64,000 nt of DNA from a virus, in the IMG/VR virus record IMGVR_UViG_3300013120_000110, positions 14,710 through 78,709 of that record. One strand, 5' to 3'. Under the pieces are notes generated by a model that was not told where the DNA came from, searched no databases, and saw only the letters and a program-made list of their open reading frames with translations. A program made the translations under genes and the position numbers. Below are positions 62,633 through 63,440 of this stretch, in pieces; within the stretch, counting starts at the first letter, position 1; each line of letters begins with the position of its first letter.

Positions 62633-63440
62633 TCTAGCTTTACTTAGTTCCGTAAAGTGAAGGCAAGTGGAGCATCCTGCGGCGCTGCCCAGGTTCGCCT
62701 AGTTCCGTATTGTGAAGCTCAGTTGAGTGGTGTCTAGCTTACCACGCTTATGTAGTGTGAAGGCCGGTTTAGTGGTGTTCAGCTTACCCCGGTTGCGTAT
62801 TGTGAAGGTCGGCTGAGGGGAGGTTAGGTTGCCTAGTGTGAAGCTGCACGGAGGCGTTTCGCACTAGGTGGGAAGGAATCTCTTTGGGGAGCAGCCGTGC
62901 CGGGCTCGCCCTGGCTCAATCCGTCGCCTCGGGTGGGGCCCCGGCTGGACCTCGGCGACATCGACCCGCCCCGACCAGCCCCACCCGCTCCACCTCGGGC
63001 CCATTCAACCTACCGTGCCCCTCACCTCCGCCCCGTCCCTCTTACGCCAGCGCTACACTTCCGAGCGCTCTGTAACACACCCGAGCGCTTGACCTCTCTG
63101 CCATGCCAAATAGCAGTATTTAACACATAGCGCCCCCCCCACACACACCTGCCCGTGGTTCGCGTCGATTCTTCTCTATCCTGCCCAGCGCCCACCTGGG
63201 CGCCACTAGCCTGGGCCTCACCTCTCCTGGGCGCCACTAGCCTGGACCTGCCACACCTACCCTGTGCTCACCTTCACCGCTTTGGCGCCGGATGAGCCTG
63301 GACCCGCCTCACCTCTCCTGCCCTGGGCTCACCTCGGCTGGGCTCCTCCGGCCTGGGCCACCTCTCCGGGTCGGGCGACGCTGTGGCGCCGCTATCCCCG
63401 GCGCTCTGGCTGGGCTTCGGTTGGCCTTTGGTCCAGGTTG
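62633..63440. repeat. non-coding pentanucleotide-periodic tract
   Basis: G at 34 of 39 positions spaced 5 bp apart (62637-62827); C-phased pentamers to the right. Confidence 0.8.

Follow-up and report, generated by a model that had tools for sequence, protein, structure and literature searches.

Two convergent five-nucleotide-phased arrays in an uncultured temperate phage as candidate orphan guide RNAs of the VIPR class

A gene-free gap in the genome of an uncultured phage holds two non-coding arrays, A and B, in which a G recurs every five nucleotides. The best reading, to which we give a probability of about 0.6, is that both are solo, or orphan, arrays of vrRNA type that belong to the VIPR class, with array A in the YNNNG form. 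VIPR is a CRISPR-like, phage-borne system first described in 2026, an RNA-guided DNA silencer related to the Cas7 proteins. The first-pass annotation of this DNA, made before any database search, had stated that it knew no named element of this kind; that statement has been overtaken by the description of VIPR vrRNA arrays in preprints of 2026. On this reading the arrays are a new, somewhat atypical representative of a kind known only since 2026, and not a new kind. What would a phage do with guide RNAs of a system whose protein it does not appear to encode? The following sections describe the arrays and their setting, the period-5 arrays of other phages, the search for a vipr gene and the readings that compete with ours.

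Two phased arrays in a gene-free gap

The IMG/VR record is 78,709 bp long, and the window (the whole stretch of 64,000 nucleotides analysed here, whose numbering is used throughout) comprises its bases 14710-78709. A 119-bp terminal overlap of the record means that the genome closes on itself, so that it is complete and circular, with a size of 78.7 kb. It belongs to a temperate phage, uncultured and without close relatives. The minus strand carries the virion, lysis and replication genes; the gene annotation of the window places on this strand an integrase (1331-2014), the replication genes at 2679-9146 (SSB-like, RusA, primase-polymerase at 6488-7222 and helicase at 7599-9146) and the terminase TerL (54472-56424). 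The plus strand holds a long series of small early genes, mostly without known family, which run from promoters near 57450-57495. Two divergent promoters stand there back to back, agreeing with the sigma-70 consensus at 11 of 12 and 12 of 12 positions; one faces the virion operon on the minus strand and the other the early operon on the plus strand, the latter running into array A.

In the ORF list, the gap with both arrays measures 1.07 kb (62628..63695) and is flanked by two small plus-strand genes. The upstream neighbour (62343..62627) encodes a DUF4031 protein of 94 aa (Pfam PF13223, E 9e-12) and is not part of the array element, while the downstream neighbour (63696..63968) is a 90-aa ORF that matches neither a Pfam nor a PHROG family and lacks relatives in IMG/VR. 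The only ORFs inside the gap are short proline/arginine-rich frames in its C-rich half. An Rfam scan of 61500-64000 (E <= 10) gave only a 12-bit snoRNA match, which is noise, and no hammerhead; a tRNA scan found none in the gap and a single tRNA-Thr elsewhere. GC content is 0.61-0.72 across ~62800-63400 compared with ~0.45-0.60 in the adjoining sequence. For array B, this may reflect acquisition from a higher-GC source or a composition forced by the repeat pattern.

Array A (62637..62836, plus strand) consists of ~40 pentamers of the form G-Y-N-N-N, equivalent to YNNNG. The first-pass annotation had counted G at 34 of 39 positions in steps of 5 nt between 62637 and 62827, with the other four phases mixed; a recount agrees, and the binomial probability of at least 34 of 39, given the tract's own G content (0.32), is 2e-12. 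The Fourier comparison with shuffles that it had proposed gives the same picture: the two largest peaks are at periods 5.00 and 2.50 (power 7.3 and 7.1), the maximum in 2000 shuffles has a mean of 2.3 (sd 0.39, largest 4.9), and the peak of array A lies more than 12 sd above it. The Viterbi phase score is 28, against a shuffle mean of ~0 (sd 3). In a scan of the whole 64-kb window array A ranks first for both period-5 and period-10 single-base phasing, and in a 100-nt scan of the 78.7-kb genome it is the sole G tract in which 15 or more of 20 phased positions are G, the maximum being 18 of 20. The logo of the 40 units reads G85 / Y82 / N / N / A50 (percent). Since a pyrimidine occupies position 2 in 82% of the units, the unit is G-Y-N-N-N and not G-N-N-N-N.

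Could the pattern be that of a coding tandem repeat, of the 15-nt or pentapeptide type? This was rejected, as no ORF covers the tract and the power at periods 3 and 15 is low. Mean power in array A is 6.8 at period 5, 2.7 at periods 15 and 7.5, and 0.9 at period 3; the coding-repeat class found in IMG/VR has a power of 5-18 at periods 15 and 7.5 and of 2-17 at period 3. A long hairpin between the G-phased and the C-phased halves of the gap was rejected too, because the inverted repeats form short pairs without nesting and array A RNA does not fold more stably than its shuffles (z -0.5). Strong phasing on one strand, fixation of positions 1 and 2 only, and an unstructured RNA are together what one would predict of a single-stranded lattice to which a repeating protein binds.

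A higher-order repeat is superimposed on the pentamers. The hexamer GTGAAG, of which the plus strand of the whole window has 18 copies, occurs in this tract at 62657, 62712, 62757, 62802 and 62838 (spacings 55, 45, 45 and 36), exactly as first described. The 45-bp repeat announced with it was found by two programs, one of them Tandem Repeats Finder (period 45 nt, 2.5 copies, 76% matches, 62706-62817). Array A comprises four to five GTGAAG-marked sub-units with 11, 9, 9 and ~7 pentamers. Its 45-nt units are 70-76% alike and resemble recent duplications more than separate guides; this counts against the reading as a guide array. In the two best-aligned units, 9 of 11 differences fall at pentamer positions 3-5; the sample is small, and this bias is missing from the other two comparisons.

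The 3' end of array A is occupied by a hairpin (62830..62870, plus strand) that includes the fifth GTGAAG. Its fold energy is -24 to -26 kcal/mol (z -3.9), and none of 200 shuffles folds as well. The hairpin may serve as a tail, as a processing site or as a structure resembling a terminator; no U-run follows it, and a role as an intrinsic terminator is conjectural. Directly upstream of array A or array B there is no convincing sigma-70 promoter; transcription of array A could come by read-through from the early operon.

Array B (62951..63361) lies on the minus strand and is made of G-phased pentamers that appear as C-phased on the plus strand, with weaker phasing out to ~62880-63440. G occupies 86% of its anchor positions. 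Its segments, parted by phase slips, have phased G at 15/17, 11/11, 14/14, 7/9 and 25/32 positions. With a Viterbi score of 49 (shuffle mean 21, sd 4), array B exceeds mono- and dinucleotide shuffles by 7 sd; the Fourier peak is at a period of ~5.1, and the GC skew of the plus strand is -0.25 to -0.46 over the ~500 nt of the array B half. Four copies of GGCAGG, at 63322, 63252, 63185 and 63153, are spaced by 70, 67 and 32 nt (P ~0.02), and the spacings of 67-70 nt resemble those of 64-69 nt between GGCAGG copies in a Vipr-linked array of another phage locus (L037). Arrays A and B converge head to head on ~62870-62950 with different repeat patterns. A convergent pair with two different patterns was not found described in the VIPR preprints.

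Period-5 arrays of other phages and their link to Vipr

No relative of the element itself emerged. By blastn, none of 50,697 phage records matched the region, and a search of IMG/VR with the two-unit pattern of the 45-nt repeat returned 0. The 22 relatives of the DUF4031 gene (8 IMG/VR loci and 14 metagenome loci) have no comparable adjoining tract; runs with 15 of 20 phased positions at one of them (L009) are weak, lie within GC-rich coding DNA and were discarded. The whole records of TerL relatives with 47-49% identity (L010-L013) contain no phased tract, and the genome contigs searched with TerL gave no match. As no relative with the tract was found, comparison of the element with orthologues is not possible.

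The period-5 pattern does recur in phages. Scanning IMG/VR for 18 G spaced by 5 yielded at least 43 pure period-5 loci among the matches listed. The phased-G matches listed split cleanly into this class and a second one with power at 15, 7.5 and 3 and an autocorrelation of at least 0.8 at 15, 30 and 45. The second class probably represents 15-nt coding repeats, of pentapeptide type, in phage proteins; it makes up about half of the matches listed, with tracts up to 540 nt long (L034, L039, L051, L075, L130 and others). The pure period-5 class has an invariant G (often GGY) and two or three positions near maximal entropy. It has a weak autocorrelation at 44, 49 and 54 nt, because the phase slips by 1 nt at a TGGCAGG motif.

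VIPR arrays have been described in similar terms. The canonical vrRNA has 9-16 YNNGG repeats, in which GGY is fixed and NN hypervariable, and a tail comes after them; other repeat forms (NNNGG, YNNNG and NNNNG) as well as staggered and ribozyme-interspersed arrays occur (10.64898/2026.04.26.720920). One Vipr protomer sits on each 5-nt repeat and the protein polymerises along the RNA, with the repeat's G1 held by the RRM sheet and the G-loop Asp, then by Trp and Arg (10.64898/2026.04.26.720927). Vipr is a Cas7-like RAMP of ~200 aa with an RRM core, a thumb and a G-loop (GxGDWRP), and its gene usually lies beside the arrays. Individual vrRNAs end in a conserved 3' tail, are staggered by 1 nt or are set apart by hammerhead ribozymes, and their variable bases match targets in competing mobile elements under a gapped code that skips 1 nt. 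Six vap accessory families have been published. The first-pass annotation had supposed that phase rather than sequence is under selection, as in a filament track or a repetitive RNA, and this matches the mechanism of one Vipr per 5 nt in the closest known element. An intergenic survey identified its period-5 band with VIPR arrays, in 99 clusters of which 76 lie beside a Vipr-like fold (10.64898/2026.10.21.760802).

Looking in other phages for period-5 tracts and the genes linked to them, as had been suggested from the sequence alone, led to the same family. A protein of ~200 aa adjoining the arrays is the centre of a BLAST cluster that touches 39 of the 43 pure period-5 loci among the matches listed; this cluster also caught spurious G-rich ORFs from the arrays, and true members occur at fewer loci than 39 of 43. 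An alignment of 22 cluster members has a C-terminal G-x-G-D/E-W-R-P loop, and the profile of these 22 Vipr proteins matches PDB 36pp, 'SUSP1 Vipr protein', with an E of 6.6e-25. A second IMG/VR scan, with G-Y-N-N-N x13, brought 103 new loci, 57 of them with a Vipr match. At the locus L244, GTNNN x17 and further YNNNG runs form arrays (8150-8410) downstream of a Vipr gene (7095-7700) whose product matches the SUSP1 Vipr directly (E 1e-7). Three other loci (L162, L186 and L250) also have Vipr-adjoining arrays with the G-Y-N-N-N pattern and three variable positions, like array A. A 10-mer, CCGTATTGTG, is common to a unit of the window and L244; it is explained by the low-complexity repeat pattern and was set aside.

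How close is the resemblance? With the YNNNG/NNNNG and staggered VIPR arrays, as at L244, the arrays of this phage share the non-coding setting in a phage, the strict 5-nt unit, a G followed by a pyrimidine and then three variable bases, tens of units, occasional phase slips and an RNA strand defined by the G; the staggered arrays also share the GGCAGG punctuation of array B. They differ from VIPR systems with YNNNG arrays in having no vipr gene and no recognised accessory family, in sub-units that are 70-76% alike, in the head-to-head arrangement of two differing arrays and in the anchor G, which stands at 85-87% here and at 94-100% in the sampled Vipr-linked arrays, the latter having been chosen for perfect runs.

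Several features of the IMG/VR loci deserve mention on their own account. A family of 160-230 aa with the motif PLH..FEWDD directly follows Vipr in 12 of the 43 array loci among the matches listed (for example L244:7633-8139 and L060:3257-3742) and probably corresponds to a vap accessory gene already published. Neither Vipr nor this neighbour has a Pfam family. A 331-aa protein that this phage has in common with four array-bearing loci was considered and turned out to be a RecE-type exonuclease, not Vipr. Two loci (L147:5400-8950 and L181:7600-9200) have several kb of VIPR arrays around a single Vipr gene. The complement of GGC-type repeats is also G-phased and contributes part of the two-strand signal at these two loci, and strand calls for GGC arrays need care.

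A phage without a recognisable vipr gene

Both arrays are non-coding and have repeats within the range known from complete VIPR systems (GGY or NNNGG/YNNNG/NNNNG). A complete system would also have a vipr gene on the same element, and three sequence methods indicate that this phage probably has none. The Vipr profile found nothing at E <= 10 in all six frames of the whole genome, the best E with hmmsearch --max was 0.46, and profile-sequence alignment with hhalign reached a probability of 5% at best. Since the same profile detects the Viprs of both array types, one would expect it to reveal a cognate gene from either subfamily. A scan for the G-loop motif, together with Atlas look-ups of two larger unknown proteins, produced no RAMP candidate; one of the two resembles a helical protein, the other a metallophosphatase. 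The PLH..FEWDD family, which is one of the six vap families at most, has no BLAST match in the genome.

Arrays without their protein have a precedent. Solo vrRNAs, a category described in October 2026, occur in satellites (F5) and in hundreds of VIPR-null phages, and in SUSP1-family phages vipr-vap1 has been deleted and the vrRNAs have been left (10.64898/2026.10.15.759431). An array of vrRNA-type pentamers is called solo if its contig has no Vipr, or has none within 20 kb, and if its fixed positions reach a frequency of at least ~0.8. Here, no Vipr was found on the 78.7-kb circular contig, and the fixed G has a frequency of 0.85-0.87, above the 0.80 of the solo-vrRNA caller (10.64898/2026.10.15.759431). 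Like the F5 satellites and the VIPR-null SUSP1-family phages, then, this is a mobile element without Vipr (10.64898/2026.10.15.759431). However, the published solo vrRNAs have the canonical GGY-NN repeat and a SUSP1-type tail, come from phages and satellites of Enterobacteriaceae and have predicted targets, whereas the repeat here is non-canonical and neither tail homology nor a target was found. The target scan applied the gapped code under nine position/skip rules to 1.3 Mb, consisting of the phage's own genome and the loci retrieved for comparison. Nothing rose above shuffled guides, with the sole exception of the array matching itself.

In a phage without vipr, the arrays are solo, or orphan, and would act only with Vipr supplied in trans. 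The source of this Vipr could be a co-infecting phage or a resident prophage. Array A would be transcribed from the plus strand, with one Vipr protomer covering each 5-nt unit. The protein would hold the phased G (and the pyrimidine), and the rest of the unit would be free for pairing with DNA under a gapped code. In this scheme the sub-units of 45 to 55 nt marked by GTGAAG would be individual guides of ~9-11 repeats, and the hairpin at 62830-62870 would close the array. Array B would be of the same class, punctuated by GGCAGG in the manner of the 'staggered' VIPR arrays. The outcome could be of two kinds: the orphan arrays might redirect a rival's Vipr to targets useful to the phage, or they might titrate it as a sponge. 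A comparable arrangement exists in class 1 CRISPR, where, as in VIPR, a RAMP (the Cas7 backbone) polymerises on the guide (the crRNA) at a fixed step and pairing is periodically interrupted. There, however, the step is 6 nt, the spacers have no sequence periodicity, and repeats of 28-37 nt alternate with spacers; none are present here.

Orphan guide arrays have been proposed as weapons that hijack the Vipr protein of a rival. If this is true of the present pair, it would extend orphan arrays to the YNNNG form, to an uncultured temperate phage and to a convergent pair, and would provide a test case for two questions. Do YNNNG guides use three bases per unit? Can the Vipr of one element load the RNA of another? 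If the arrays bind no Vipr, they would point to an unrecognised reader of period-5 RNA. The most far-reaching outcome would be a second, unrelated family of filament proteins on a 5-nt RNA lattice or, less radically, trans-acting anti-VIPR decoys with a three-base-per-unit code, in a convergent pair and in a phage outside Enterobacteriaceae; we regard this as an unlikely prospect.

Relics, other readers and DNA sites

The arrays might instead be unused and drifting relics, left when a VIPR locus lost its vipr and accessory genes by deletion. This is improbable, in our view, even if several observations fit it: the vipr gene is absent by sequence search, the anchor G is less conserved than in Vipr-linked arrays, phase slips and non-G pentamers are present, there is no clear promoter, and the high GC of array B suggests a foreign origin. 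Loss of vipr-vap1 from SUSP1-family phages shows that such a deletion can leave vrRNAs behind, but those VIPR-null phages retain arrays with predicted targets (10.64898/2026.10.15.759431). In the phage described here, the phasing is still very strong (z ~7-10) and array A retains its stable terminal hairpin intact, both of which count against a drifting relic, and 1.07 kb of useless DNA would be costly to a packaged phage genome.

A different possibility is that the lattice serves another single-stranded RNA- or DNA-binding protein of phage or host with a 5-nt footprint, analogous and not homologous to VIPR. Other proteins, of ring form, do read RNA of the type (NAG-NN)n, as TRAP of Bacillus does, and this is a precedent for such a reader. 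The TRAP sites of Bacillus trp leaders are (G/U)AG triplets with 2-3-nt spacers, in 9-11 units, accompanied by alternative terminator hairpins. Like array A, they have a phased purine motif every 5 nt, an unstructured RNA and an oligomeric reader, and half of the units of array A end in AG, recalling these sites, although array A has 40 units in place of 9-11. The phage encodes no Vipr, most of its early genes are without known family, and 23 of the 99 period-5 clusters of the intergenic survey were not selected as Vipr-adjoining (10.64898/2026.10.21.760802). All this leaves some room for another reader, but no candidate protein emerged, and the arrays match forms that are linked to Vipr elsewhere (YNNNG and GGCAGG-punctuated), so we hold this explanation to be quite improbable and prefer orphan VIPR arrays.

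Sites that act as DNA, such as an iteron origin, a ParB centromere or a packaging signal, had been among the options of the first-pass annotation and have not stood up. The region is large, non-coding and rich in direct repeats, with a switch of strand polarity near 62870-62950, which speaks for such a site. Yet each 5-bp unit has just one or two fixed bases, and these on one strand only, while in iterons, parS and pac sites an entire motif of 7-22 bp is conserved. The inverted repeats include no palindromic parS-like site, and no origin-like or pac-like repeat is present. The replication genes (2679-9146) and the terminase (54472-56424) are not beside the tract. The ParB-like gene cited in support does have a counterpart in the annotation, at 11733-12731, but the match is marginal (E 3e-4). 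A DNA-level site is therefore very unlikely. Least likely of all is a decayed pentanucleotide microsatellite or compositional accident (or, as a variant, a rut site for Rho loading at 62900-63420 on the plus strand with incidental phasing, which the C-rich, G-poor ~500 nt resemble in composition), because no shuffle approaches the signal, the G is fixed and entropy comes close to its maximum at three to four of the five positions, the opposite of decay, and Rho requires no 5-nt phase.

Three further loci on the minus strand of this genome deserve a comment. The second-best period-5 run of the genome, 14 consecutive phased G at ~13500-13640, lies inside a GroES/Cpn10-like ORF and is taken as chance; this ORF (13416-13712, ~98 aa) is an open frame with a GRVVAVGPG motif and looks genuine. 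A RecE/exonuclease VIII-like PDDEXK gene (14588-15580) stands together with a small partner (14002-14370), a pair also found in two VIPR-bearing loci (L118 and L145), and is probably an ordinary recombination module outside VIPR. Finally, a 275-aa ORF without Pfam or PHROG match (4193-5017) has a confident Atlas model (pTM 0.88) that matches phage clusters of calcineurin-like metallophosphatases with a TM of 0.96.
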